DNA of 49,442 nt from a virus. Numbering within the stretch: position 1 is the first letter of the stretch; every line of letters begins with the position of its first letter. The stretch lies in the IMG/VR virus record IMGVR_UViG_3300010167_000030, positions 1-49,442 of that record. One strand, 5' to 3'. Below are positions 2,481 through 49,442 of the stretch, piece after piece. Position numbers and translations under genes: made by a program. Below the pieces are notes generated by a model that was given only the letters and a program-made list of their open reading frames with translations, was not told the origin of the DNA and searched no databases.

Positions 2481-3125
2481 ATGACAAATAAGAAATTTTA
2501 TATTTTTAGTGGCGTTTCCGGTTTTGTGATCGGAATCGTTTTTACTATTATGACGTTTTCTATTTTTGACGTTAAAACCTCAAATGTTTTGCCGGAACTA
2601 AACCAAGACCAAACAATTGAGATATTTTCTAAAATTGGTTATGCCCACGATTTAGTCAATTTAGATGACCCATACGATTATTTCCCTGATATTCCATTAT
2701 GTTCAGAATTGCAGATATTTATTGGAGAAATGGCCGAACGATACGAAATAGACAAGTTTCTTATATTGGCGATCGCGCATGTGGAGACAGGAGGGACATA
2801 CAATACCGAATTGGTCGGCGGACCTAGCGATAAAGGAGTTTATTTTTACGGACTGATGCAAATTGATCCGGGTTGGTTGTCTTGGGGGAAGGAGCGAAAC
2901 GACGGACGAAAATTATATTTAATGGATCCATATGACAATATTCAATTAGGCACCATGATACTGAAATACTATCAGGACATGGCCCATGTTGGAACGGACT
3001 TGCATAAACTTGCGATGTGTTACAACGGAAATGAGGGATACGCTAGAGAGTTATGGGATAAAGGGATATTTGAAACGAAATACAGTCGCGCTGTTGTGGA
3101 TATTTATAATAAATTAAAGAATTAA
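2481..3125 (+). CDS. Membrane-anchored lytic transglycosylase (SLT-like)
   Basis: N-terminal TM helix (FYIFSGVSGFVIGIVFTIMTF). LAIAHVETGG...YGLMQI resembles the SLT catalytic-Glu and GLMQ motifs. Confidence 0.6.
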   Translation: MTNKKFYIFSGVSGFVIGIVFTIMTFSIFDVKTSNVLPELNQDQTIEIFSKIGYAHDLVNLDDPYDYFPDIPLCSELQIFIGEMAERYEIDKFLILAIAHVETGGTYNTELVGGPSDKGVYFYGLMQIDPGWLSWGKERNDGRKLYLMDPYDNIQLGTMILKYYQDMAHVGTDLHKLAMCYNGNEGYARELWDKGIFETKYSRAVVDIYNKLKN

Positions 3126-3149
3126 ATGTGAAAGGGAGAAAATGTTACC

Positions 3150-3569
3150 ATGGGAACAACAACACGCCCTGAATTATCCGGGAAGAATCAATACTGGATC
3201 GAGAAACACAGATATTATGAATTGAAACATTTTTGTCTCCAATACCCAATATGGGAGAAAGCTTATGAGGGTTTAGATGGCTTGAATAAGACTAAGGAGG
3301 GCCTGGATATTCTCAGCAAAACAAACAACATAACAGACTTAACATTTAAATGTGTTGAGGCTAAATTATTTTATTCTGAGAAAATGGACATGGTTAAGCA
3401 GGCGGCCATTGATACCAATCACATTCTATCAAGTTATATTTTAAAAGCGGTAACAGAAGGTCTTTCTTATGACCATCTGAAAAATAGAATGGGGGTCCCA
3501 TGTTGTAAGGGTATGTATTACGAATTATATAGACAATTTTTTTGGAACCTTAATAAACTACGACAATGA
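3150..3569 (+). CDS. Putative small transcription factor (RinA / sigma region-4-like)
   Basis: 139 aa. Layout is reminiscent of phage late activators: N-terminal YELKHFCLQYPIWEKAY and a C-terminal HTH-like GLSYDHLKNRMGVPCCKGMYYELYRQFF. Assignment from memory only. Confidence 0.4.
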   Translation: MGTTTRPELSGKNQYWIEKHRYYELKHFCLQYPIWEKAYEGLDGLNKTKEGLDILSKTNNITDLTFKCVEAKLFYSEKMDMVKQAAIDTNHILSSYILKAVTEGLSYDHLKNRMGVPCCKGMYYELYRQFFWNLNKLRQ

Positions 3570-3573
3570 TATT

Positions 3574-3603
3574 TGCGCGAAATTTACACGTTCTATAACG
3601 AAG
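3574..3603 (+). promoter_or_regulatory. Phage promoter-like motif copy P1
   Basis: CGCG(3576)-AAATTT-ACA-CGTTC-TATAAC-GAAG. Ends at the first base of the tRNA-like gene. Confidence 0.55.
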
Positions 3604-3674
3604 AGATAGTTAGCTCAACGGGAGAGCAACCGACTTGTAAAGGGTTGATACGGGTTCGATTCCTGTACTATTTC
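3604..3674 (+). tRNA. tRNA-like gene, Thr(UGU)-type anticodon loop, defective anticodon stem
   Basis: Acceptor AGATAGT/ACTATTT. D-arm GCTC-AACGGGA-GAGC. Anticodon loop CTTGTAA. T-arm ACGGG-TTCGATT-CCTGT. The anticodon stem ACCGA/AGGGT has only 3 pairs (G-G and A-A next to the loop). No encoded CCA. Confidence 0.6.
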
Positions 3675-3700
3675 TTTTATATTTTGAAAGGAGAGAGAAA

Positions 3701-4147
3701 ATGAAGAAGGATTTTCGCATTACGAAACACAACCCGAATACAATAAAAAACTTAATTGAAACCAGAGATCCAAAGGGGTTATTTTATTGCATCGAAACAA
3801 GAGAATGGGAGGGTAATAATGTTGGTTGGGAGGAAAAGGTATATGTTGCCGTCGATAACAGTACCGGAGATGCGTGGGTAGATGAATTTCCAGATTTGCG
3901 AAGTTGTAGACGATGGCTTTTAAGAAATGAAAAACAACCAAAACGACCTAAAAAACCAAAACCCAAGCCAAAGGCATTATATTTATGTGATCGTAAAGCT
4001 TGTTCAAAACCTTCAAGTCATTGCGGAGTTTATTGTTTTCATACATCAGATTTGAAACACGCAATCTCATTTGAAAAGGATGGCGCTTGGTATTTTGAAA
4101 GGAGAGAAAATCATGAAAACGATTCCATTTACAAGGGGGAATTATGA
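3701..4147 (+). CDS. Hypothetical protein (paralog set D, copy 1)
   Basis: Strong RBS. IETRDPKGLFYCIE...VAVDNSTGDAWVDEFPDLRSCRRWLL matches the next ORF. Lys/Pro-rich linker and Cys/His-rich C-terminus. Confidence 0.75.
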   Translation: MKKDFRITKHNPNTIKNLIETRDPKGLFYCIETREWEGNNVGWEEKVYVAVDNSTGDAWVDEFPDLRSCRRWLLRNEKQPKRPKKPKPKPKALYLCDRKACSKPSSHCGVYCFHTSDLKHAISFEKDGAWYFERRENHENDSIYKGEL

Positions 4148-4395
4148 GAGAAAAAGAGATTATTAAGCTAAGATTGGACGAAGCAAAAGACGTAATTGAA
4201 ACCAAAATTCCAAATGGTCTGTTTTATTGCATTGAGAAATTGGAGGATAAAAATATATATATTGCTATTGATAATAATAATGGCCATTTATGGATAGAGG
4301 AATTTCCAGATTTACGACGTTGCAAGCATTGGCTTATGAACGAAATAGGAAGCAGGTATTTTATTTATAGGTTAAAAGAAGATAGATGGAAATAG
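4144..4395 (+). CDS. Hypothetical protein (paralog set D, copy 2)
   Basis: ATGA overlap with the upstream gene. IETKIPNGLFYCIE...IAIDNNNGHLWIEEFPDLRRCKHWLM. Confidence 0.75.
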   Translation: MREKEIIKLRLDEAKDVIETKIPNGLFYCIEKLEDKNIYIAIDNNNGHLWIEEFPDLRRCKHWLMNEIGSRYFIYRLKEDRWK

Positions 4396-4646
4396 GAGGA
4401 AGTGATAATTTAAGAAAGGTGAGGATTAAGATGGAAGACGAAATTAAAATCAACGAAAAGACAATTAATATTTACGAGGCATACATTAAGGTTAATAGAT
4501 TATGTGATATTGTCGAAAAAGAATATTGCATGTCAAATGAAACGTGTCCGGCAATTAATGGAATCCGGATATGGATGAATGATATTCTCGCGTTCTTCGA
4601 AGCAAAGCCGAAAGAAACCGAAGAAATGAACTGGAAAGAGAGGTAA
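4386..4646 (+). CDS. Hypothetical protein
   Basis: ORF. The internal ATG at 4431 has the better RBS (AAGGTGAGG), so the true start may be 4431. Confidence 0.55.
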   Translation: MEIGGSDNLRKVRIKMEDEIKINEKTINIYEAYIKVNRLCDIVEKEYCMSNETCPAINGIRIWMNDILAFFEAKPKETEEMNWKER

Positions 4647-5370: not shown

Positions 5371-5400
5371 TGCGCGAATTAAACACGTTCTGTAATGAAA
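5371..5400 (+). promoter_or_regulatory. Phage promoter-like motif copy P2
   Basis: CGCG(5373)-AATTAA-ACA-CGTTC-TGTAAT-GAAA. Confidence 0.55.
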
Positions 5401-5414
5401 GGATGTGATATTTT

Positions 5415-5675
5415 ATGACAAAAGATGCGCAGAAAAAAAAGATTAAAGAAATTTTAGATGAATTAACTGAAATTGAATTAGAGATTCATCGATCAGCGGC
5501 GCAACTCGGTCAATGTATTGTTAATATTAATGAATGCTTAAAAATTGATGATATTGATGCCGCATTACTATATTATCGAGTAAATTGCAAGCTTCGATTG
5601 AATTACAAATTCGTTAAAGAAAATCTTGAAGAAAAAGAATCGAAAATCTGGGAAAAAATTTATGAAGTATACTAA
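5415..5675 (+). CDS. Hypothetical 86-aa helical protein (paralog set B, copy 1)
   Basis: Aligns by eye with 6947-7198 (ILDELTEIELEIHR..LGQCIVNINECLKIDDIDAALLYY versus ILKKVANILINLHK..MDACIVAINNSIVINNVDTITKFY). Confidence 0.75.
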   Translation: MTKDAQKKKIKEILDELTEIELEIHRSAAQLGQCIVNINECLKIDDIDAALLYYRVNCKLRLNYKFVKENLEEKESKIWEKIYEVY

Positions 5676-5686
5676 ATTCAATCAAT

Positions 5687-5716
5687 AAAGAGTTTGATAA
5701 AAACTCTTTATTTTTT
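5687..5716 (+). terminator. Rho-independent terminator
   Basis: AAAGAGTTT-GATAA-AAACTCTTT (9-bp perfect stem) followed by ATTTTTT. Confidence 0.8.
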
Positions 5717-5718
5717 CT

Positions 5719-5748
5719 TACGCGAAAAAAACATACTCTATAATGAAC
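5719..5748 (+). promoter_or_regulatory. Phage promoter-like motif copy P3
   Basis: CGCG(5721)-AAAAAA-ACA-TACTC-TATAAT-GAAC. Directly precedes the 108-nt structured RNA. Confidence 0.6.
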
Positions 5749-5856
5749 AACAGTAGAAGCTTAATGCTTAGGAAGAATTCACCGATGAATAGAGAATTAC
5801 TCTATCGACCATTCGGTGATGGGGTTCGAGTCCCCACGTTAGATGCTTATACTGTT
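5749..5856 (+). ncRNA. Structured tRNA-like RNA (canonical T-arm, non-cloverleaf body)
   Basis: Perfect T-arm TGGGG-TTCGAGT-CCCCA (5820-5836). A 10-bp terminal stem pairs CAGTAGAAGC (5751-5760) with GCTTATACTG (5845-5854). A 41-nt extended arm (5779-5819) has TCACCGA/TCGGTGA and TAGAG-AATTA-CTCTA. Bracketed by promoter copy P3 and a T-run. I could not fold it as a standard tRNA. Confidence 0.5.
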
Positions 5857-5861
5857 TATTT

Positions 5862-5891
5862 TTCGCGCTATTTACAATGTCTGTAATGAAG
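5862..5891 (+). promoter_or_regulatory. Phage promoter-like motif copy P4
   Basis: CGCG(5864)-CTATTT-ACA-ATGTC-TGTAAT-GAAG. Confidence 0.55.
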
Positions 5892-5904
5892 GGAGTGATA
5901 TTTT

Positions 5905-6045
5905 ATGAATAATGAGAAAGCGATTGTATTTATTGGGTTAGCTGTTAGTTTTATATCAACATTAATAATTGGTTGGACTAACGGTCGATTAACGAAAATG
6001 GCAGTCACAAAATTAGTAGAAGAAGCACTTGCAAAAAGAAATTAA
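5905..6045 (+). CDS. Small (46-aa) single-TM peptide
   Basis: Not in the ORF track (<60 aa). MNNEKAIVFIGLAVSFISTLIIGWTNGRL.... Has the shared GGGAGTGATATTTTATG leader and is followed by a terminator. Confidence 0.5.
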   Translation: MNNEKAIVFIGLAVSFISTLIIGWTNGRLTKMAVTKLVEEALAKRN

Positions 6046-6056
6046 AAACGGAGAAG

Positions 6057-6078
6057 GACTCTTAATAAGAGTCTTTTT
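6057..6078 (+). terminator. Rho-independent terminator
   Basis: GACTCTT-AAT-AAGAGTC followed by TTTTT. Confidence 0.7.
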
Positions 6079-6103
6079 CTTTATATTTTTGAAAGGAGAA
6101 ACA

Positions 6104-6931
6104 ATGAATACGTTAATTCTGGATAGATTTATGAGAAATATTCAGAGAGTCACCAATAAATACAGTCCTGAAATCCTATCTGGAATCGGGATCGCAGGTA
6201 TGATAACGACAACTATTTTAGCCGTTAAGGCAACTCCTAAAGCTCTAAGATTATTAGAAGAGGCTGAAAAAAGATATTTAGATTCTTCGACGTCCAAAGC
6301 ATCTAAAGGCGAATTGGTAGATAGCAAAGGAAAGGAGATCCCGATATTTAAGCCGTTAGAAAAGGTTAAAATAGTTTATACATGTTATATTCCATCCGTC
6401 GTTATTGGTTTTCTGTCTATATTTTGCCTTGTTGGTGCGAGTTCCGTAAACCTACGGAGAAACGCAGCGTTAGCAACCGCATATACGCTCTCTGAATCGG
6501 CTCTACGAGAGTATCAGGAGAAAGTTATTGAGACGATTGGCAGCAAAAAGGAGCAGGCAATCAAAGATGATATTGCTAAAGATAGAATCGATAAAAATCC
6601 CGTAACAAGCAGGGAAATAATCATTACAGAGAAAGGGAATACATTATGCTATGACGTCATTTCCGGAAGATATTTCAAATCTGATATGGATAAAATCAAA
6701 AAAGCTGAAAATCAACTTAATCTACAGTTGCGATACGATATGTTTATATCCTTGAACGAGTTTTATGACGAAATAGGTTTACATCCAACAAGCCTAGGTG
6801 ATCAACTTGGATGGACAATTGATGATGGATATATTGAATTGAAATTCAGTTCAGCGTTGACGGATAGCGGAAGTCCGTGCCTGGTTATTGACTATAGAGT
6901 TGCTCCGAGGTACGACTATAAAAACGGATAA
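6104..6931 (+). CDS. Two-TM membrane protein (paralog set A, copy 2)
   Basis: ATG at 6104 follows GAAAGGAGAAACA. The ORF-track start 6029 would read through the terminator at 6057-6078. KYSPEILSGIGIAGMITTTILAVKAT...LNEFYDEIGLHPTSLGDQLGWT. Confidence 0.8.
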   Translation: MNTLILDRFMRNIQRVTNKYSPEILSGIGIAGMITTTILAVKATPKALRLLEEAEKRYLDSSTSKASKGELVDSKGKEIPIFKPLEKVKIVYTCYIPSVVIGFLSIFCLVGASSVNLRRNAALATAYTLSESALREYQEKVIETIGSKKEQAIKDDIAKDRIDKNPVTSREIIITEKGNTLCYDVISGRYFKSDMDKIKKAENQLNLQLRYDMFISLNEFYDEIGLHPTSLGDQLGWTIDDGYIELKFSSALTDSGSPCLVIDYRVAPRYDYKNG

Positions 6932-6946
6932 GGAGGTGTGATATTT

Positions 6947-7198
6947 ATGATGGAAAATTCTCAAAAAATTGAAGAAATCTTAAAAAAAGTAGCTAATATC
7001 CTTATAAACTTGCATAAACTTTACAATCAAATGGATGCCTGTATTGTGGCCATTAATAATTCTATAGTAATAAATAATGTTGATACCATAACAAAGTTTT
7101 ATGAATCGACTACTCCATATAATCGAAATTGGAAGAAATTAGTGGTAGAAATCAACGACCAACTCGAAGAACTTTATGGGGCGATCAAAAGTATATAA
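6947..7198 (+). CDS. Hypothetical helical protein (paralog set B, copy 2)
   Basis: ATG lies 10 nt after AAGGAGG. Paralog of 5415-5675. Confidence 0.75.
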   Translation: MMENSQKIEEILKKVANILINLHKLYNQMDACIVAINNSIVINNVDTITKFYESTTPYNRNWKKLVVEINDQLEELYGAIKSI

Positions 7199-8065: not shown

Positions 8066-8095
8066 CGCGCGCGAAAAACATACCCTTTAATGAAG
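8066..8095 (+). promoter_or_regulatory. Phage promoter-like motif copy P5
   Basis: CGCG(8068)-CGAAAA-ACA-TACCC-TTTAAT-GAAG. Confidence 0.55.
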
Positions 8096-9207: not shown

Positions 9208-10161
9208 ATGGATAAATTAAACATTATAAACGGCATGAACAAAACTTTTGCGAGAGTAAATTTTCAGGTAATGAAACATAGTCCTGAAATTTTTCTTATT
9301 GCCGGATTATGTGGAGTGGTCGCCAGTACGGTCATGGCGTGCAAGGCAACTACAAAAATTAATACCATTCTTAGCAACCATAAAAAAGATATTGAGACAA
9401 TTCACACTTATGCTGAAGACGAATCTTATAAAGAAGAATATTCAGAGGAAGACAGCAAAAAGGATTTACTAATTGTCTACACGCAAACCGCTTTTAAATT
9501 CTTAAAACTCTACGGTCCGGCAGTCGCCGTTGGAATTTTGTCAATCGGATGTATATTAGCATCCAATAATATTATGCGTGCCAGAAACATAGCTCTTGCA
9601 AGCGCATATGCCACGATAGATAAAGGTTTCAAGGAATATCGGAATCGAGTTATTGAGCGTTTTGGGAAGGACGTCGATCACGAACTAAAATACAACATAA
9701 AAGCAAAGAAATTCGAAGAAACTATCGTCGATGAAAAAGGAAAAGAAAAGAAAGTCGAGAAAGCCGTTGATATTGCAAATCTTGATTATTGTAGCGAGTA
9801 CGCCCGTTTCTTTGATGCAGCATCGAGACATTGGGAGGATAATTCCGAGTACAATTTAATGTACGCTCGCCTTCAGCAGCAATATGCAAATAATTTACTT
9901 CGGTCTAGGGGATATTTATTTTTGAATGAGGTATATAACATGTTTGATATTCCGATTTCGAAGGCCGGGCAAATTGTCGGGTGGACCTATGATTTAAAAA
10001 ACCCTAAAGGCGATAATTATGTTGACTTCGGAATTTATAAAGCAAGTATTGAAAAATTGGATAATACTGATTTTGTCAACGGTTACGAACCGGCAGTATT
10101 ACTGGACTTTAATGTCGATGGTGATATTTGGAGCACAATAGAGCATTCATTAAAAAAGTAA
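9208..10161 (+). CDS. Two-TM membrane protein (paralog set A, copy 3)
   Basis: KHSPEIFLIAGLCGVVASTVMACKAT...NIALASAY...EYRNRVIERFG...LNEVYNMFDIPISKAGQIVGWTY. Confidence 0.8.
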   Translation: MDKLNIINGMNKTFARVNFQVMKHSPEIFLIAGLCGVVASTVMACKATTKINTILSNHKKDIETIHTYAEDESYKEEYSEEDSKKDLLIVYTQTAFKFLKLYGPAVAVGILSIGCILASNNIMRARNIALASAYATIDKGFKEYRNRVIERFGKDVDHELKYNIKAKKFEETIVDEKGKEKKVEKAVDIANLDYCSEYARFFDAASRHWEDNSEYNLMYARLQQQYANNLLRSRGYLFLNEVYNMFDIPISKAGQIVGWTYDLKNPKGDNYVDFGIYKASIEKLDNTDFVNGYEPAVLLDFNVDGDIWSTIEHSLKK

Positions 10162-22292: not shown

Positions 22293-22322
22293 CACGCGAA
22301 AAAAACATTCACTTTAATGAAG
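22293..22322 (+). promoter_or_regulatory. Phage promoter-like motif copy P6 (upstream of the nuclease and RNAP-candidate genes)
   Basis: CGCG(22295)-AAAAAA-ACA-TTCAC-TTTAAT-GAAG. A degenerate second copy follows at about 22327-22356. Confidence 0.55.
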
Positions 22323-26749: not shown

Positions 26750-27158
26750 ATGTTATAGAGAACTTATTCTCCTACCTACTTTCGAAGAACGTTTTGAGTA
26801 TTTAAGGCTCGGGGCAATGGTCGCTCAAGAAACATTTGGTTATAGTCGATATTTAAATCAGGTTTTGTATACGTCTCTTTTATGGAGACAAACAAAAGAT
26901 GAAATCTTAATTCGCGATAACGGATGCGACCTTGGAATTATTGGAAGAGAGATATTTGATCGGCCACTAATTCATCATATCAATCCAATAACCATGGAGA
27001 ACATTAAGAATCGAGATGACTGTATCATTGATCCCGAAAATCTTATAACCACCGTTCACAATACCCATAACGCAATACATTATGGCGATGCATCATTACT
27101 AATAAGATTACCACCGGAAAGAAAGAAAGGAGATACCAATTTATGGAAAGTATATTGA
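26742..27158 (+). CDS. HNH endonuclease (packaging-associated)
   Basis: DNGCDLG...IHHINPIT...NLITTVHNTHNAIH. ATG at 26742 is better spaced from GAGGAG than 26733. Confidence 0.8.
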   Translation: MIRCYRELILLPTFEERFEYLRLGAMVAQETFGYSRYLNQVLYTSLLWRQTKDEILIRDNGCDLGIIGREIFDRPLIHHINPITMENIKNRDDCIIDPENLITTVHNTHNAIHYGDASLLIRLPPERKKGDTNLWKVY

Positions 27159-27502
27159 CTTCGATAAAAAAACTTCTTGGCATCGAAAAAGAATACGAAC
27201 ACTTTGATTCTGAGTTGATAGTCTTTATTAATGGCGCCTTAATGAATGCAAACCAATTAGGAATAGGCCCAAAAGAAGGTTTCTTCATAACCGGCGATTC
27301 TGAAACATGGGAGGATTTCGTTGGAAATCGAATAGCAGAGCTTGAGGCAATTCAGACGTACGTCTTTCAGAAAGTGAAGTTGGCTTTCGACCCTCCTCAA
27401 ATTGGATTTTTAGTTGATGCTTTGCAGAAACAAATACTTGAACTTGAATGGCGATTAAACGTTCAAATAGAAACGCCAAAGGAGAAGGAGGAAGAGAAAT
27501 GA
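27143..27502 (+). CDS. Putative head-tail connector (gp6-like) protein
   Basis: ILTSIKKLLGI..EYEHFDSELIVFINGALMNANQLGIGP...WRLNV resembles phage gp6-like connector/DNA-packaging proteins. From memory. Confidence 0.45.
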   Translation: MESILTSIKKLLGIEKEYEHFDSELIVFINGALMNANQLGIGPKEGFFITGDSETWEDFVGNRIAELEAIQTYVFQKVKLAFDPPQIGFLVDALQKQILELEWRLNVQIETPKEKEEEK

Positions 27503-27897
27503 ACAGCGAGTTAACTCATTACGGCATCCTCGGTATGAAATGGGGGATAAGGCGTTTTCAGAATTCCGACGGATCTCGAACTGCTGAAGGAAGAAAACGA
27601 GAAGCAATGAAGAAAATTAAAGATCAGCGAATTAAAGATAAAAAATATCGTTCTTTAATGTCAGACGAAGAATTATTTAGAAAGCTAGGACGCTTAGAAA
27701 AAGAAAAGAAATTTCGCGAACTTACGCAACAAGAAGTTGCACCAGGTCGTACGGCAGCTTCAAAGATTCTTAAAGATATAGGAAGAACTGCTGTTGTAAC
27801 GGTTGGAGTTGGCGCTAGTGTATATACAGTTAGAGCCGTGTTACAAAAGAAATTCGATCCCAAAGAATTAGCCAGGGCGCTTACGCCAAAAAAATAA
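27499..27897 (+). CDS. THYGILGMKWG-motif protein 1 (basic, C-terminal hydrophobic helix)
   Basis: ATGA-coupled start. N-terminus MNSELTHYGILGMKWGIRRFQNSDGSRTAEGRKR. C-terminus GRTAVVTVGVGASVYTVRAVL. Confidence 0.75.
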   Translation: MNSELTHYGILGMKWGIRRFQNSDGSRTAEGRKREAMKKIKDQRIKDKKYRSLMSDEELFRKLGRLEKEKKFRELTQQEVAPGRTAASKILKDIGRTAVVTVGVGASVYTVRAVLQKKFDPKELARALTPKK

Positions 27898-27898
27898 A

Positions 27899-28267
27899 TT
27901 ATTTAGGAACGAGTTTACTAATTTCTTTTACTAATTTTGGTCCCTCGTTCGACACTACTTTAATGCCTTCTTTGATAGCTTCGGCAGCTTTTGGCATAGC
28001 AACTATTGTGGTAGGAATTACTGTTATAGCATTTTTAGCGAGTTGTATCCGTTTTTCTTTAAGTTTTTCATCTTTAGCAATGCAAGAAGGACAAAAGGGC
28101 TCGTCTTTATCGGTAATTGGTAAAAGCGCATAGCATCTTCTTTTTCTGCAAACATATTGGAGATCGTTTTTACAAAATGGACAATACTTATAACTCATGT
28201 TGAATTTAGTTTTGGTTTTATTGGCGTCGCATTCTCGATTAAAACATCCTTTTTGCTTTTTCATCAT
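27899..28267 (-). CDS. Zinc-ribbon protein (the only minus-strand gene)
   Basis: 122 aa. CFNREC..(18)..CPFC..(9)..C...(17)..CPSC. AAGGAG RBS and its own sigma-A-type promoter. Confidence 0.75.
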   Translation of the reverse strand: MMKKQKGCFNRECDANKTKTKFNMSYKYCPFCKNDLQYVCRKRRCYALLPITDKDEPFCPSCIAKDEKLKEKRIQLAKNAITVIPTTIVAMPKAAEAIKEGIKVVSNEGPKLVKEISKLVPK

Positions 28268-28298: not shown

Positions 28299-28327
28299 AT
28301 ATTATCATCAAAAGGAGGAAATTACAA
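28299..28327 (-). promoter_or_regulatory. Canonical sigma-A-type promoter for the antisense zinc-ribbon gene
   Basis: On the minus strand: TTGTAA, 17-nt spacer ending in TGa, then TAATAT. The -35 overlaps the ATG of the + strand gene at 28327. Confidence 0.55.
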
Positions 28328-28863
28328 TGGCTAATAATGAACTCACACACTATGGGATCCTCGGAATGAAATGGGGAGTTAGAAGGTATCAGAATCCAGA
28401 TGGGTCTTTAACCGAAGTAGGTAAAAAACGCGTTGGAAAAATCGCAAAAAGCGCTGGAAGAAGCTATGCGACCTCGGCTAACATTAGAAAAGATACATTA
28501 AAAGTAGTAAGAGAATCGAAGAAAAGCGCTAAAGAAGCAGAAGAATTTAGTCGAGAACATGCGAAAAAAGGAAATAAAATAAGATCTTGGATTGGCGCTG
28601 CCTCGGCGTACTATAATAAACAGGATGCGAAAGAGATGAGAAGTATTGGGTTAAAAGATGCGAAGAGATGGATCGAATATGGAGACTATAGAAAACAAAA
28701 AGCTTACGATTTTGTTGACAAATACAATAAAGGAAATAAAAAAACAAAAAAATTAGTCGACGCCACGATTCAACAATATTCTAATACATCTTACAAATTA
28801 TTTACGACCAATTATCAAAACGATCTTAAAAAACAAGTACAAGGAATAAGAGCGGTTAGATAA
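28327..28863 (+). CDS. THYGILGMKWG-motif protein 2 (Lys-rich)
   Basis: N-terminus MANNELTHYGILGMKWGVRRYQNPDGSLTEVGKKR. Confidence 0.8.
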   Translation: MANNELTHYGILGMKWGVRRYQNPDGSLTEVGKKRVGKIAKSAGRSYATSANIRKDTLKVVRESKKSAKEAEEFSREHAKKGNKIRSWIGAASAYYNKQDAKEMRSIGLKDAKRWIEYGDYRKQKAYDFVDKYNKGNKKTKKLVDATIQQYSNTSYKLFTTNYQNDLKKQVQGIRAVR

Positions 28864-28896: not shown

Positions 28897-30642
28897 ATGG
28901 CACTCTCAAACACCGCCGTTCCCAAGTATTACGGCTTGTTTAGAGATGCCGTAATCCAAGGATACATTCCTGTAAATAAAGAAATCTCAATGGAGATGAA
29001 TCGTATCGATGATTTAATTGAAAACCGAGGAGTTTATTACGATGAAGATGCAATTGAAGGGTATGTTCAATTTTGTGAATGCGAATTGACTCTTACAGAT
29101 GGTTCTAATTTAAAACTTCTCGATACTTTTAAATTATGGGCAGAGCAAATATTTGGTTGGTACTATTTTGTAGAACGAAGTGTTTATGAACCAACCGAAG
29201 ATGGTTATGGCGGGCGCTATGTCCGTAAGATGATTAAAAAGCGACTGACGAATAAACAATATTTGATTGTTGCCCGTGGCGCTGCTAAATCGATGTATGG
29301 GTCCTCTATCCATAATTACTTTCTTAATGTCGATACGACTACCACGCATCAAATTACAACGGCCCCTACTATGAAACAAGCCGAAGAAGTAATGTCTCCA
29401 ATACGTACCGCTATTACACGGGCACGCGGTCCTTTGTTTCAATTTTTAACCGAGGGGTCGCTACAGAATACTACGGGTTCTAGGGCAAATCGACAGAAGC
29501 TCGCTTCGACTAAAAAAGGGATTGAGAACTTTTTAACCGGATCGCTACTTGAGGTCAGGCCCATGTCAATCGATAAGCTACAAGGTTTAAGGCCAAAGAT
29601 TTCAACCATTGATGAATGGCTTTCCGGCGATATTCGAGAGGATGTTGTCGGAGCAATCGAGCAAGGGGCTTCCAAGCTTGATGACTATTTAATTATTGCA
29701 ATGAGTTCTGAAGGCACGGTTCGAAATAGTTCGGGCGATACAATTAAAATGGAATTAATGGAGATTCTTAAAGGAGACTACGTTAATCCTCATGTTTCTA
29801 TTTGGTATTACCGATTAGATGACGTAATAGAGATAAATGACCCGGCAACCTGGGTAAAAGCTCAACCAAACATTGGGAAAACCGTTACATACGAAGCCTA
29901 TCAACTTGATGTAGAGAGAGCTGAAAACGCTCCGGCGACAAGAAACGATATTTTGGCAAAACGTTTCGGGATTCCGATGGAGGGCTATACTTATTACTTC
30001 ACTTATGAAGAAACGCTTCCGCATCGTGTGCGGGATTATTGGCAACTGCCTTGTGCATTAGGAGGAGACCTGTCACAAGGAGATGACTTTTGTTCGTTTA
30101 CATTTTTGTTCCCTTTGCAGAATGGGTGTTTTGGCGTTAAGACTCGTAACTATATTTCATCGTTAACATTAATGAAATTACCAGCAGCAATGAGAATCAA
30201 ATATGATGAGTTTATTAACGAAGGAAGTTTAATGATACTTGATGGCACAGTTTTAGACATGATGGAAGTGTACGATGACTTGGATGAGCATATTACTGAA
30301 CGTGGTTATGACGTTCGTTGTTTTGGATATGATCCGTATAACGCAAAAGAATTTATTGAAAGGTGGGCGGCCGAGAACGGGCCCTTTGGGATTGAGAAAG
30401 TAATTCAAGGAATAAAAAGTGAATCCGTGCCATTAGGAGAATTAAAGAAGCTCTCAGAAGAAAGAATGTTGTTGTTCGACGAAGAATTAATGACTTTTGC
30501 CATGGGCAACTGCATAACTTTAGAAGACACAAATGGTAATAGGAAATTGCTCAAGAAAAGGCAATCGCAAAAAATTGATGCTGTCGCGGCTATGATGGAC
30601 GCGTATATTGCCTATAAACGAAATCGAGATGCTTTTGAGTAA
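28897..30642 (+). CDS. terL: Terminase large subunit
   Basis: 581 aa. Walker-A-like LIVARGAAKSMYGS, then a C-terminal nuclease region with acidic motifs (GGDLSQGDDF, FGYDPYNA, IDAVAAMMDA). Position is consistent. Confidence 0.85.
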   Translation: MALSNTAVPKYYGLFRDAVIQGYIPVNKEISMEMNRIDDLIENRGVYYDEDAIEGYVQFCECELTLTDGSNLKLLDTFKLWAEQIFGWYYFVERSVYEPTEDGYGGRYVRKMIKKRLTNKQYLIVARGAAKSMYGSSIHNYFLNVDTTTTHQITTAPTMKQAEEVMSPIRTAITRARGPLFQFLTEGSLQNTTGSRANRQKLASTKKGIENFLTGSLLEVRPMSIDKLQGLRPKISTIDEWLSGDIREDVVGAIEQGASKLDDYLIIAMSSEGTVRNSSGDTIKMELMEILKGDYVNPHVSIWYYRLDDVIEINDPATWVKAQPNIGKTVTYEAYQLDVERAENAPATRNDILAKRFGIPMEGYTYYFTYEETLPHRVRDYWQLPCALGGDLSQGDDFCSFTFLFPLQNGCFGVKTRNYISSLTLMKLPAAMRIKYDEFINEGSLMILDGTVLDMMEVYDDLDEHITERGYDVRCFGYDPYNAKEFIERWAAENGPFGIEKVIQGIKSESVPLGELKKLSEERMLLFDEELMTFAMGNCITLEDTNGNRKLLKKRQSQKIDAVAAMMDAYIAYKRNRDAFE

Positions 30643-30655
30643 AGGAGGAATAATC

Positions 30656-31543
30656 ATGTGGGCTTATAACTATACCATATACCCTTCCGAGTTGTATCAT
30701 CATGGGGTTCTTGGAATGCGGTGGGGTAAAAGAAATGGCCCACCTTATCCTCTTGGAACAGAGGGGCGTCAAGCAAATAGAAGAGTATTTAGGAGAGAAG
30801 GTCGATCGGATGCGCCAAAAGAAAAATCTAAACATCGATCGAGATTAGAAGAGCGTTATCGTAGCAAGGGAATGAATCAATCAGAAGCCGAAAAAGCAGC
30901 TGCTAAAAGGATTAAAATTGAGAAAATTATAGCTGTTGCTGGCGTAATGACAGTTACTGCGGCTACGGCTTATGTGATACATAAGAAACTTGGGAAAGAA
31001 AAATTCGGAGGAATACTAAATAAATCAGTGTCAGAGATTACAAAACATGGTAAACTAAATTTACCAACGTGGGAACGTATTCCGACTACGAAAGAGGCTT
31101 TAAAAGCTTCTAATCCTTCTGGGCATACGAAAAATTGCGTAGGTTCGGTTCTTGCATTTGAATTAAATAAACAGGGGTATAAAGTAGAGGCCCTTTCTAG
31201 CAATACTCTCAGTTTAAAGGCTGTTTGCGATATTTTTGGTAAAAAAGCTAGCGATGTTAAAACCATTTCTTCAGAAACTGATAAAATCAAAGAACTTAAA
31301 CGAGTGTCGAATAGCTGGGGAGAAGGCTCAAGAGGATTTTTAGGTCTTTATATGAAAAACGGAGACCATCATGCGGCCGCTTTCGAGAGGGCGTTGCAAA
31401 AAACAGATTTCTTAGACCCACAAACAAAAAATGGTAATTTCGAAAAAGTTGTTGCTTCAGCGGAAAAGATTATATATTTTCGAATGGATAATGCGAATTT
31501 TGTAGAAGAAGCGATTTTACCATTTATAAAGAAATCAATCTAA
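30656..31543 (+). CDS. HHGVLGMRWG-motif protein 3: basic region + TM + papain-fold (Tox-PL1-like) C-terminal domain
   Basis: ELYHHGVLGMRWGKRNGPPYPLG. TM helix IIAVAGVMTVTAATAYVI. NPSGHTKNCVGSVLAFELNKQG (Cys) ... GDHHAAAFE (His) ... DFLDPQT. Confidence 0.7.
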   Translation: MWAYNYTIYPSELYHHGVLGMRWGKRNGPPYPLGTEGRQANRRVFRREGRSDAPKEKSKHRSRLEERYRSKGMNQSEAEKAAAKRIKIEKIIAVAGVMTVTAATAYVIHKKLGKEKFGGILNKSVSEITKHGKLNLPTWERIPTTKEALKASNPSGHTKNCVGSVLAFELNKQGYKVEALSSNTLSLKAVCDIFGKKASDVKTISSETDKIKELKRVSNSWGEGSRGFLGLYMKNGDHHAAAFERALQKTDFLDPQTKNGNFEKVVASAEKIIYFRMDNANFVEEAILPFIKKSI

Positions 31544-31551
31544 AACATTAT

Positions 31552-31581
31552 TACGCGTTAATAACACCTCCTTTTATGAAA
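31552..31581 (+). promoter_or_regulatory. Phage promoter-like motif copy P7 (inside the late region)
   Basis: CGCG(31554)-TTAATA-ACA-CCTCC-TTTTAT-GAAA, in exact register with P0-P6. Confidence 0.45.
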
Positions 31582-31616
31582 AACATTGAATTAAAATTTA
31601 AAGGAGGAAATGAACT

Positions 31617-31868
31617 ATGTTAAAGTATAAGCACATTGAGGCAAGTCGAGAGGTAAGACTTTGGTTAGGACAAATAATAATACCGGCCGTATTAGTAGGG
31701 ACGATAATACTTAATAACAACCCAAGGCTTAGATACTCGATTTCGAGAAAAATTAGAAAAACAAAAAACTCTATTGCGAATAGAATTCAAAAAATCAAAT
31801 GGAAAATAGAAAATAAAAAGAGAACAAGAAGGCTAATGAAATGGCAAGCAGAAAAAAGAGCATTATAA
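31617..31868 (+). CDS. Small TM protein with highly basic tail
   Basis: TM helix LWLGQIIIPAVLVGTIIL followed by a K/R-rich tail. Confidence 0.65.
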   Translation: MLKYKHIEASREVRLWLGQIIIPAVLVGTIILNNNPRLRYSISRKIRKTKNSIANRIQKIKWKIENKKRTRRLMKWQAEKRAL

Positions 31869-31891
31869 AATGTTTAAAAGGAGAGAAAGAA

Positions 31892-32158
31892 ATGAACATT
31901 AAAGAAGCATATAAAAAAGTAAAGGAATTAGGAGATGAAAGAAATTATTTAGATAGATGCTATGAGTTCAATGATAAATGGTATTTTTTCTTTTTCGACA
32001 AAGAGTATCCGTCAGATGAAAAACCTTTTGGAGGGGGCTATGATGTGATTGATCAGAAAACCGGCGAAATTACATTTATATCAACCGGGAACGAGGAATT
32101 TCATGAAGCTTTTGAAAAAGATTTAGTAAAAAAAATAGACGTTGCTATATTTAAATAA
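31892..32158 (+). CDS. Putative immunity-like small protein
   Basis: 88 aa, ATG after AAAGGAGAG. Small acidic alpha/beta-looking protein directly downstream of the toxin-like domain gene. Assignment is by context. Confidence 0.45.
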   Translation: MNIKEAYKKVKELGDERNYLDRCYEFNDKWYFFFFDKEYPSDEKPFGGGYDVIDQKTGEITFISTGNEEFHEAFEKDLVKKIDVAIFK

Positions 32159-32180
32159 ATAATCAAAGAAAGAAAACTAA

Positions 32181-32213
32181 AGGTAGAGTCGCGATAAGCA
32201 CTCTATCTTTTTA
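32181..32213 (+). terminator. Rho-independent terminator between the inserted cassette and the portal gene
   Basis: AGGTAGAGT-(10-nt loop)-ACTCTATCT followed by TTTTTA. Confidence 0.6.
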
Positions 32214-45572: not shown

Positions 45573-47378
45573 ATGGCTGTGACATATGGATTTTTTGATT
45601 CTGTGGGAGGAGACCGAACGTACAATGCTCGTCAAATGTCTCAACTTTTTGAAGGGATTATACGAGACGGAGTATTTCGGACAGTTGGGGATAAATTAGC
45701 CGTTATGCCAAATAACGGAATGGTGGTCAATGTTGGAAGTGGCAGGGCTTGGATAAATGGGTCGTGGCTGCATAATGATGCAACTTTACCAATAGCATTA
45801 GATCCTTCAGAACAATTATTCGATAGAATAGACGCCATTGTGATGGAGATAGATGCCAGCGAAGCGGTCAGGGCCGGTCGGATTTTTAAGATTAAAGGCA
45901 TACCAGCCACTATTCCGGAGCGTCCAATAATGGTAGATGACGATTTCGTGAAGCAATACGCACTTGGTTATATTTTGGTAGAAGCTGAAACGACTGAAAT
46001 AACTGCTATTAATATTACCGATGTTGTGGGCTTCGCAGAAACTCCATTTGTTACGGGACCACTTGAAACGGCCAGCGTTGATTATTTATTTGACCAATGG
46101 TATGAAGAATTTAATAATTGGTTTCAGCATATTCAAGGGTTACTTGAGGATGACATTGTGCTGTCTTTGCAGAATCAGATAAACCAGAATAAATACGCGA
46201 TTACAGAATTGCAGAATAAAACCATATTAGCAACTCAGCAAGAAGCAGAAGAAGGTACAAGTACGGTCATTCGCGCATGGAACCCCGCATTAATTAAAAC
46301 CGTTGCGATTAATACTTCTGGCTATAACGTTGGATCATATTTATCTTTTGTTGATAAAATAAATGCCGAATCGCTCGACGCAGCATTCGGCAAAAACAAC
46401 ACAAGTAGGGTATTGAATATCGGAATGCAACTTGCCATGTTTGCTTGGTTTAAAGGAGCTGATCCAATAGCATTTCCATTTAATCAATTAAAATTTTGCG
46501 ATACTTTTGAAAAATGCGTTGAGGTGGCGTCGCTTGAAATTCTTGAAAACGACCAAATAATGGATTTAATTGAGCTTTCTCCATTTGCAATATCGCAATT
46601 TTATAGTCCTTCGGCAGTTAGAACGTGGAAAAAAAGTTATAACATAATGGAACGAATATTGTCTAAAGCTATTATAGTTAACCGCATTCGGAATACTACG
46701 GAATTACGAGAAGCATTTCATGAGAATAAAATAGCGCTGACTACTGTTGGCGCCGGAACGTTTATCGTTCCAATGGAGATTGAGGGGGATTGCATTATTG
46801 TGTTTGGGGTTGCTGGAGGAAGAGATGGAGTCGGAGGGGCATCTAGTTCTGGCGCCGGAGATGGAGGAAATGCCGGTGGTGCTTTTCAGCAGCTTATTAA
46901 AATTGTTCCTGGTCAGAGTTTTAATTATAACGTTGGAGGTGGGCAGCAAAATACTACGTTTGGTACTTTTACAGCAGTTACTACTACTCCTCCGCCAGCT
47001 CAAGATGGTTTGATTGTTAGACGTTCTGGTAATGGGGCGTCAACGGGAGGATCTGGAGGCGGTGGTGGTGGTGGATATGGTGGTGGTGGTGGTGGATATG
47101 GTAATGGAACAACAACGGCTGGGTCCGGAAAGCCAGGAATTGGTGGGTATGGTGGAAATAATGGTGGGCATGGCGGCGCAAGTAATAGTGGTAATCAGGG
47201 CGCTGCCGGTTCTGGCTTAAGAGATATAGGAGACGGAGGCGGAGGTGGTGGTGGTGGTGGATATGGTAATCCCCAAACCGCTGGTGGTAATGCGCCAAAT
47301 GGAGGCGCCGGAGGACTCGCTATCAATTATCAAAATGGTGGCAAAGGCGGTCCAGGCGCAATCGCGATATTTATGTAA
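45573..47378 (+). CDS. Tail fibre / receptor-binding protein with glycine-rich C-terminus
   Basis: N-terminus YGFFDSVGGDRTYNARQMSQLFEGIIRDGVF...VNVGSGRAWINGSW. The C-terminal roughly 190 aa are about 50 percent Gly (GGGGGGGYGGGGGGYGNG...). Confidence 0.7.
   Translation: MAVTYGFFDSVGGDRTYNARQMSQLFEGIIRDGVFRTVGDKLAVMPNNGMVVNVGSGRAWINGSWLHNDATLPIALDPSEQLFDRIDAIVMEIDASEAVRAGRIFKIKGIPATIPERPIMVDDDFVKQYALGYILVEAETTEITAINITDVVGFAETPFVTGPLETASVDYLFDQWYEEFNNWFQHIQGLLEDDIVLSLQNQINQNKYAITELQNKTILATQQEAEEGTSTVIRAWNPALIKTVAINTSGYNVGSYLSFVDKINAESLDAAFGKNNTSRVLNIGMQLAMFAWFKGADPIAFPFNQLKFCDTFEKCVEVASLEILENDQIMDLIELSPFAISQFYSPSAVRTWKKSYNIMERILSKAIIVNRIRNTTELREAFHENKIALTTVGAGTFIVPMEIEGDCIIVFGVAGGRDGVGGASSSGAGDGGNAGGAFQQLIKIVPGQSFNYNVGGGQQNTTFGTFTAVTTTPPPAQDGLIVRRSGNGASTGGSGGGGGGGYGGGGGGYGNGTTTAGSGKPGIGGYGGNNGGHGGASNSGNQGAAGSGLRDIGDGGGGGGGGGYGNPQTAGGNAPNGGAGGLAINYQNGGKGGPGAIAIFM
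47057..47105 (+). repeat. (GGT)n-GGATATGGT simple-sequence repeat inside the fibre gene (second block at 47235-47270)
   Basis: GGCGGTGGTGGTGGTGGATATGGT appears twice in tandem, with a third related block 130 nt downstream. Confidence 0.85.
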
Positions 47379-49319: not shown

Positions 49320-49367
49320 GGTTTCCTAAACCGTGCGTCGGATGTTCGAATCATCTCGGGGGTACCA
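49320..49367 (+). tRNA. Second copy of the partial tRNA-Arg(CCU) 3' part (att core)
   Basis: Identical to 1-48. Confidence 0.65.
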
Positions 49368-49442
49368 TCAAAAATCCTTGTAATCATGCAAATTCAAACG
49401 ATTACGGGGATTTTTTCTTTTATTCTAAATGGTTATATTTAC
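49320..49442. repeat. Terminal direct repeat, right copy (exact identity with 1..123)
   Basis: Same 123 nt as 1-123. Preceded by xis; the left copy is followed by int. Confidence 0.95.

Follow-up and report, generated by a model that had tools for sequence, protein, structure and literature searches.

What is a papain-fold protein with a short N-terminal tag doing between the terL and portal genes of a temperate phage, and do the two small genes that follow it belong to the same system? The question is posed by the virus record IMGVR_UViG_3300010167_000030 (IMG/VR), a stretch of 49,442 nucleotides (nt) that was analyzed at its full length, is referred to hereafter as the window, and constitutes a complete temperate siphophage genome. 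Three genes occupy its terL–portal junction, encoding proteins of 295, 83, and 88 amino acids (aa); the original prediction, drawn from the letters of the DNA, had taken them together as a toxin–immunity-like cassette with an internal promoter copy and a terminator. Each element named there is present, at its reported position or a few bases away, and the ensemble goes well past what chance would produce. Our analysis assigns a Tox-PL1 papain-fold domain to the 295-aa protein, pairs it with the 88-aa protein as a putative immunity partner, and sets the 83-aa gene apart. The reading that we favor, and hold to be somewhat better than an even chance, is that of a phage-borne polymorphic-toxin-type cassette, composed of a DUF7211-tagged Tox-PL1 effector and its 88-aa partner and delivered by the virion.

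Architecture of the 295-aa protein

The gene and the features that precede its C-terminal domain are:

30656-31543, + strand: encodes the 295-aa tagged effector, which runs from the DUF7211 tag through a basic linker and a single hydrophobic helix to the Tox-PL1 papain-fold domain; identified from its open reading frame (ORF), ribosome-binding site, DUF7211 match, and family hidden Markov model (HMM)
30686-30733, + strand: DUF7211 tag, residues 11-26 (ELYHHGVLGMRWGKRN), from PF23847
30926-30985, + strand: hydrophobic, small-residue-rich helix, about residues 91-110 (IIAVAGVMTVTAATAYVI), from a hydropathy scan and the sequence

The gene lies 3′ of the terL stop codon and has a Shine–Dalgarno sequence (AGGAGG); its homologues share the same N-terminal start (MWTYNYS...ELYHYGVLGMKWG), which confirms the ATG at 30656. 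The HHGVLGMRWG tag that had been noticed at this N-terminus corresponds to Pfam DUF7211 (PF23847), matched by residues 11-26 at 30.0 bits against a gathering score of 27, and H15, G17, G20, and W23 are invariant across 60 DUF7211-tagged proteins. DUF7211 alone is matched by the N-terminus, with no match to Phage_Mu_F (PF04233). The basic region and single transmembrane helix of the original description are likewise present, as a basic linker after the tag (isoelectric point, pI, 9.87 for the whole protein) and the hydrophobic helix listed above. This DUF7211–helix–Tox-PL1 architecture recurs in two other loci, L121 (3232-4143) and L155 (3293-4285).

Assignment of the C-terminal domain to Tox-PL1

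31088-31540, + strand: Tox-PL1/Gln_amidase-like papain-fold domain, residues 145-295, from phmmer homologues, invariant columns, an AlphaFold2 (AF2) model, and an OspI profile match
31133-31138 (N160-C161), 31370-31372 (H239), 31415-31417 (D254), and 31421-31423 (Q256), + strand: catalytic candidates

Family scans (Pfam, PHROG, NCBIfam, and PADLOC) returned nothing beyond DUF7211 for the toxin domain or for the 83-aa and 88-aa proteins, and a word-indexed homology search with the toxin domain gave no match; a search of PDB sequences with the single 295-aa protein produced a match to ARMET alone, which we rejected as spurious. Comparison with phages by tblastn revealed that the domain resembles the C-terminal parts of gp04 from Arthrobacter phage Piccoletto and gp7 from Mycobacterium phage Nergal, both of which match PF15644 (Gln_amidase) above cutoff. 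Exhaustive phmmer searching of 1.84 billion cluster representatives then gave 87 matches at E<1e-3 (best non-self match, 2.6e-9), and 81 of 84 phmmer homologues are PF15644-positive.

C161 and H239 are invariant in the family alignment, with N160, D254, and Q256 near-invariant; the two strings that had been quoted, NPSGHTKNCVGSVLAFELNKQG and GDHHAAAFERALQKTDFLDPQT, are both present in the protein and hold the conserved columns C161, H239, D254, and Q256. D254-P-Q256 forms the DxQ part of the Tox-PL1 signature NC-H-DxQ (Zhang et al, 2012, PMC3482391), and the signature is intact. An HMM built from homologue domains, with the 295-aa protein left out, recognizes that protein at 140 bits (E 1.9e-42) as its sole match among 463 six-frame ORFs of the window.

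The AF2 model of the toxin domain (predicted local distance difference test score, pLDDT, 94.2; predicted template-modeling score 0.89) has as its top Foldseek matches in the PDB papain-fold Cys enzymes throughout: AvrPphB, BpJOS, OspI, RavD, a C39 peptidase, MCF, Tae4/Ssp1, a papain-like toxin/immunity pair, and SpeB. When the family profile rather than a single sequence is compared with the PDB, OspI (3b21) is found at E 4.7e-5, with NC, H, and DxQ aligned. Given the PF15644-positive homologues, the signature, the HMM, the modeled fold, and the OspI match, we therefore regard as sound the assignment, by sequence comparison and modeling, of residues 145-295 to a divergent, signature-intact Tox-PL1/Gln_amidase papain-fold domain; the papain-fold, Tox-PL1-like character first proposed for this protein is thereby upheld.

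The 88-aa acidic protein as conserved partner

31892-32158, + strand: gene for the 88-aa acidic cytoplasmic protein, putative immunity protein or inhibitor of the Tox-PL1 domain, from synteny, homologues, and HMM

The 88-aa protein is acidic, as had been noted (pI 4.8), and has neither a signal peptide nor a transmembrane segment; since the partner bears no export signal, the enzyme's site of action would be cytoplasmic. Its relationship to the toxin domain is seen in 80 viral Tox-PL1 loci, namely those retrieved with the toxin-domain alignment, 71 of which have an ORF of 50-130 aa starting no more than 30 nt after the toxin stop codon. The partner gene of the present phage lies 348 nt downstream of the toxin gene, behind an inserted gene, and its product aligns with the post-toxin ORFs of L003 (44% identity, E 3e-20) and L044 (40% identity, E 5e-18), whose cassettes likewise sit between terL and portal and whose portals are 71-78% identical to the one encoded here. 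An HMM of partner ORFs built without the 88-aa protein has 31892-32158 as its sole match in the window (E 2.4e-17), and the match survives when the four nearest sequences are taken out as well (E 1.2e-10).

The same association appears when loci are chosen by TerL alone (276 genome stretches hold TerL relatives at 78-84% identity, and the best 80 of the 276 were kept as prophage loci): a Tox-PL1 ORF stands directly before four of the five partner-like ORFs in this set, the remaining one being a second copy in tandem. Records of Arthrobacter phages label the homologous gene ‘immunity protein’. A word-indexed search with the 88-aa protein found itself alone, and BLASTP detected no pairwise similarity to Piccoletto gp05 or Nergal gp8, the link to these running via intermediates and profiles. 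AF2 predicts, at pLDDT 83.7, an α-β4-α arrangement in which four strands are preceded and followed by a helix; an inhibitor fold of the cystatin or PepSY type was considered and is unsupported by fold and profile searches of the PDB. These comparisons identify the 88-aa protein as a conserved cognate partner and putative immunity protein that is not a member of Imm35 (PF15567), the family reported to be specific for Tox-PL1 (PMC3482391); the partners may constitute a distinct family or one very divergent from Imm35.

Partner genes also occur in other arrangements. L094 has an untagged Tox-PL1 gene (2083-2826) followed by two tandem partner genes (2823-3110 and 3147-3416), and L048 has extra partner-like genes (1394-1651 and 3354-3542) away from an apparently disrupted toxin gene; both resemble the orphan toxin/immunity modules typical of polymorphic toxin loci.

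DUF7211 carriers and the terL–portal hotspot

27143-27502, + strand: connector protein (Phage_connect_2)
27448-27897, + strand: paralogous DUF7211 protein (PF23847, 32 bits) with tag, charged linker, and C-terminal hydrophobic helix; a core gene of the lineage upstream of terL
28327-28863, + strand: second paralogous DUF7211 protein (PF23847, 40 bits), immediately upstream of terL
28897-30642, + strand: terL

The + strand order is connector, two DUF7211 genes, terL, the 295-aa gene, a repeated motif, the 83-aa gene, the 88-aa gene, a hairpin, portal, and then directly a protease–capsid fusion gene; no MuF-family match was found among the head-module proteins scanned. The 27448-27897 product has homologues in relatives and in actinophages, and over the tag its gene shares 72% DNA identity with 28327-28863 (repeat family D7). 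A role as small terminase was considered for the DUF7211 protein upstream of terL and rejected, there being no helix-turn-helix or TerS match and a hydrophobic C-terminal helix. Small DUF7211 paralogues share a conserved stretch after the tag (S..EL.....RL..E..Y).

TerL relatives come mostly from gut Clostridia (Hungatella hathewayi DSM 13479, Clostridium leptum DSM 753, [Ruminococcus] torques ATCC 27756, and Blautia), and the isolated relative, Faecalibacterium phage FP_oengus, encodes a 215-aa DUF7211 protein (gp69) between terL and portal. Among 68 relatives, terL and portal are adjacent (within 90 nt) in 29; the other 39 have a junction insert of 331-4474 nt, which in at least 32 of them holds one to four DUF7211-tagged ORFs. 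The junction is a hotspot for DUF7211-tagged genes in this lineage.

In about 160 loci, terL is flanked by a total of 188 distinct ORFs that carry the DUF7211 tag and vary at their C-termini. The C-termini of 60 long ones comprise 17 Gln_amidase domains, three with CW_7 repeats, and one transglutaminase-like domain, the rest having no Pfam match; single-linkage clustering of the tagged proteins was uninformative, as the charged linker glues families together. Conversely, the carriers of the 84 toxin-domain homologues include DUF7211 (21), Phage_Mu_F (10), VG15 (4), and Phage_min_cap2 (1). One toxin domain is thus found on several N-termini and DUF7211 on several C-termini, the modularity expected of polymorphic toxins, and since the same domain rides MuF, VG15, and Phage_min_cap2 elsewhere, DUF7211 takes the place of MuF as the N-terminal module here, which agrees with the original proposal of a carrier other than MuF.

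Another short tag (...LYHW..KK..HKYI.K......YRYFYS.EEY, possibly Pfam DUF7178) heads many other Tox-PL1 proteins of the same phage lineage (P0010, P0028, P0030, P0038, P0058, P0062, P0069, and P0084; L019 4188-5705; L022 4245-5411) and is apparently an alternative carrier to DUF7211. Farther afield, Arthrobacter phage Circum and Microbacterium phage Count have DUF7211 in two or three genes flanking terL. These include 2819-3826 (gp7, with two tags in one ORF) and 5610-6119 (gp9) of Circum (L164) and 3979-4407 (gp10) and 6180-7169 (gp12) of Count (L165); the two phages share the order connector–DUF7211–terL–(inserts)–portal–protease/capsid.

The 83-aa gene, the repeated motif, and the terminator

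31554-31580, + strand: copy of the repeated motif CGCG-N6-ACA-N4-CT-N-T-N-ATGRA, 37 nt upstream of the 83-aa gene, from a pattern scan and copy alignment
31617-31868, + strand: gene for an 83-aa basic single-pass membrane protein (tm83), probably outside the toxin–immunity pair, from homologues in L121 and MT835485
32179-32216, + strand: putative intrinsic terminator (hairpin and U-rich tail) closing the motif–tm83–immunity unit 5′ of portal, from RNA folding

The original prediction had paired the toxin-like gene with both downstream genes, correctly describing the 83-aa product as basic and membrane-spanning (one transmembrane helix, pI 11.8). Synteny in 71 of the 80 viral Tox-PL1 loci and the HMM support the pairing for the 88-aa gene; for the 83-aa gene it fails, as no homologue of tm83 stands beside the other Tox-PL1 genes in those 80 loci. 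Homologues exist in a fecal phage (MT835485) and in just one of the 80 TerL-chosen prophage loci, the Pseudoflavonifractor prophage L121 (37% identity, E 2e-6). There tm83 has the same motif 5′ of it (with one mismatch) and its own hairpin and T-run 3′, and lies ~860 nt from a DUF7211–transmembrane–Tox-PL1 gene and its partner. From this standalone unit and the want of a counterpart adjacent to Tox-PL1, we therefore conclude that motif and tm83 are probably an independent moron that landed between the toxin and immunity genes. GC content is 28-32% across 31450-32200, versus 38-43% in terL and portal.

The 27-nt motif (CGCGaaAaaaACAnnttCTtTAATGAA), which had been reported at 31552-31581 as a phage promoter copy, has nine copies in the window, all of them intergenic and on the + strand, against 0.11 expected from shuffled sequences:

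1568-1594, 1628-1654, 3576-3602, 5373-5399, 5721-5747, 5864-5890, 8068-8094, 22295-22321, and 31554-31580, + strand: copies of the motif

The left 8 kb holds seven of the copies, and another precedes the operon containing the RNA polymerase gene. The motif recurs in eight relatives, and in L100, L101, L104, L123, and L150 it stands upstream of terL, at a distance of ~5.8 kb. It may well serve as a promoter. A sigma-70 promoter was rejected, as the motif has no -35 element, its -11 A is not conserved, and one copy abuts the 5′ end of a tRNA. Conservation runs contiguously up to the likely start site, resembling the promoters of single-subunit RNA polymerases. The tRNA in question, tRNA-Thr (TGT; 3603-3675), begins at the base right after the copy at 3576-3602, and because of this junction (3602/3603) transcription would start at the 3′ end of the motif. 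The 881-aa product of 23203-25848 matches phrog_4291 (‘RNA-dependent RNA polymerase’, that is, a YonO-like phage RNA polymerase); gp55 of FP_oengus carries the same annotation, and the 881-aa protein is a candidate reader of the motif.

The terminator placed before portal in the original account (32181-32213) is recovered as a 13-bp hairpin at 32179-32210 followed by UUAUUU (folding free energy -15.2 kcal/mol, z = -3.6); a simple consensus terminator scan did not flag it.

Proposed mechanism and alternative explanations

We propose that the toxin gene is read together with the late terL operon, and that the 88-aa partner most likely binds and blocks the enzyme, keeping the toxin inactive in the producing cell. 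The DUF7211 tag would most likely direct the protein to the procapsid or the vicinity of the portal, from which it would leave the virion with the DNA. In the next cell, the Cys-His-Asp center would deamidate or cleave a cytoplasmic target protein, and the hydrophobic helix may hold the toxin at the membrane near the entry site. Insertion of the moron (motif and 83-aa gene) between toxin and immunity genes would make the immunity gene transcribable also apart from the toxin, up to the hairpin, and cells expressing the partner by way of the internal motif (lysogens, or cells early in infection) would be protected.

On present comparisons we give an even chance to the view that the tag is a trafficking module for loading the head; it is the most economical reading, because the same toxin domain is carried elsewhere by head proteins or by the second short tag. 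A broader version, which we put forward tentatively and would not expect to hold in full, makes DUF7211 a ~25-residue capsid/portal-targeting and ejection signal for polymorphic cargo (Tox-PL1 toxins included) across a siphophage supergroup with protease–capsid fusions; injected toxin would disable cells without moron-expressed immunity, and lysogen kin would thereby be protected. The proposed range of the supergroup runs from gut Clostridia phages (FP_oengus-like) to phages of Actinobacteria (Mudcat/Circum, Count).

Several observations weigh against delivery of a toxin–immunity pair by the virion. The toxin domain is an outlier, at most 38% identical to any other cluster representative and without a PF15644 match (full protein or residues 140-295) even at E 10, and its Foldseek template-modeling scores are just 0.36-0.51. 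No PDB entry emerged as a relative of the partner from fold or profile searching, and the protein has no match to Pfam Imm35 at E 1; one of 37 partner-family members matches that model (E 0.0022), and because an Imm35 match and a solved relative are both wanting, the label ‘immunity’ rests on synteny. A protein inside the head would not usually have a hydrophobic helix, and many tagged homologues lack it. The motif departs from sigma-70 promoters at both the -35 element and the -11 A, and in L094 it lies upstream of the untagged Tox-PL1 gene, so that the tag is not obligatory and the motif not immunity-specific. Finally, the searchable literature holds no virion proteomics for any DUF7211 protein, and nothing on DUF7211 itself, the GMKWG motif, or virion proteomics of FP_oengus or Circum.

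Some of these same observations would suit a protein that is never packaged, namely an effector that stays inside the cell, anchored in the membrane, and is produced late or from the prophage to modify a host protein (in takeover, superinfection exclusion, or abortive infection), with the 88-aa protein as its regulator or antitoxin and DUF7211 as an interaction motif unrelated to capsid loading. The hydrophobic helix has basic residues on its flanks, the cassette is of low GC and sits in a moron hotspot, the phage is temperate (integrase at 270-1445), untagged Tox-PL1 and immunity genes stand behind the motif in L094, and the literature lacks virion evidence for DUF7211. We nevertheless judge this explanation unlikely: the same toxin domain is fused elsewhere to the bona fide head proteins MuF, VG15, and Phage_min_cap2, and DUF7211 genes flank terL and portal in all examined loci, from phages of Clostridia to those of Actinobacteria. 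In addition, PADLOC gave no match, and the toxin gene here lacks its own copy of the promoter-like motif and is translationally tight behind terL.

Still less probable, in our view, is that the Tox-PL1 domain is a morphogenetic or release peptidase that processes head or ejection proteins, or frees DUF7211 cargo from its tags, with the partner as temporary inhibitor or chaperone. The gene is dispensable (10 Tox-PL1 ORFs in the 80 TerL-selected prophage loci, and an empty terL–portal junction in 29 of 68 relatives), a prohead protease is already fused to the capsid protein, toxin and partner are both hyper-divergent, as in arms-race pairs, and L094 and L048 have tandem or extra immunity genes. 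Such features are set against a precedent, in that Zhang et al (2012, PMC3482391) proposed a peptidase role of this kind for MuF–Tox-PL1 and a peptidase-inhibitor role for Imm35 itself, and against the several tagged paralogues per genome that could serve as substrates.

A three-gene system, in which the 83-aa protein would serve the toxin helix as membrane receptor or anchor or act as a second immunity factor, is very improbable, for although the 83-aa gene lies between those for toxin and immunity protein, shares a motif-to-terminator unit with the latter, and has its L121 homologue in the same module after a DUF7211–transmembrane–Tox-PL1 and immunity pair, the 80 viral Tox-PL1 loci contain no tm83 homologue, that single homologue among the 80 prophage loci is a separate unit, and in 71 of the 80 Tox-PL1 loci the partner follows the toxin with nothing between.

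Relation to known systems

The virion-delivered cassette that we favor has its closest counterpart in the MuF polymorphic toxins of temperate phages (Zhang et al, 2012, PMC3482391; Jamet et al, 2017, PMC5576092), fusions of MuF to Tox-PL1 having been described in the first of these studies. Like the cassette described here, a MuF system such as gp04 and gp05 of Arthrobacter phage Piccoletto lies in the head/packaging module of a temperate phage and combines an exchangeable C-terminal Tox-PL1 domain with a small downstream partner. Three differences stand out: a 25-residue DUF7211 tag, a basic linker, and a helix replace the MuF carrier of ~300-400 residues; the gene lies between terL and portal, whereas MuF toxin genes come after portal; and toxin and immunity genes are split by the inserted moron. 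A Tox-PL1 toxin–immunity cassette with MuF is already known, and what is new is the DUF7211 carrier in a terL–portal hotspot.

By profile comparison, the nearest solved relative of the toxin domain is Shigella OspI (PDB 3b21, 4ip3; Pfam Gln_amidase_like), a glutamine deamidase and likewise a papain-fold Cys-His-Asp enzyme. OspI is an effector of the type III secretion system that acts on human Ubc13, whereas the target here must be bacterial; identity is about 17%, and either deamidase or peptidase activity is predicted. The 88-aa partner resembles Imm35 in being a small, α+β cytoplasmic protein encoded beside Tox-PL1, yet the Imm35 model fails to recognize it and 36 of 37 relatives.

The capsid-targeting sequences of T4 internal proteins and the cargo-loading peptides of encapsulins are short stretches at protein termini by which varied cargo enters an HK97-fold shell. 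We liken DUF7211 to these as a matter of functional speculation, with no sequence relationship; a cargo-loading role suggests itself because the tag heads many different proteins encoded beside terL and portal. Morons, described for HK97/HK022, are promoter–gene–terminator units inside late operons; the motif–tm83–(immunity)–hairpin unit likewise has a lower GC content and occupies a variable junction, and differs in that its putative promoter is a 27-nt motif not of the sigma-70 type.

Nearly all known polymorphic toxins carried by phages are MuF fusions, and here the same kind of pair is found on a short, uncharacterized tag that heads two to five different proteins per genome in widespread gut prophages and their actinophage cousins. 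The tag may represent a new way for phages to load cargo proteins. If it is indeed a head-loading signal, it would offer a small, transferable handle by which selected proteins could be packed into phage capsids, and a large class of the “hypothetical” genes found around terL would be accounted for. The pair also supplies a testable Tox-PL1 enzyme predicted to have a bacterial target, together with a partner family that has no solved structure.

Other features of the genome

An exact 123-bp terminal duplication (1-123 = 49320-49442) marks the window as a circular assembly or complete genome of 49,319 bp. Besides the integrase (270-1445), it encodes a DNA polymerase/primase, the YonO-like RNA polymerase, and an amidase endolysin. 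The sole reverse-strand gene of the packaging module (27899-28267, - strand) sits between the two DUF7211 genes that precede terL; its 122-aa product has Cys-rich, zinc-ribbon-like motifs and a C-terminal hydrophobic segment, and lacks a family match. Just 5′ of the endolysin gene, a 601-aa ORF (45573-47378) contains Gly-rich GGTGGT repeats (GGYGGG-type) at 47048-47267. Paralogous gene pairs occur in the early region (3701-4147 versus about 4185-4340, and 6029-6931 versus 9208-10161), corresponding to the direct repeats D6 and D15 at 71-80% identity and including two phrog_2152 proteins.

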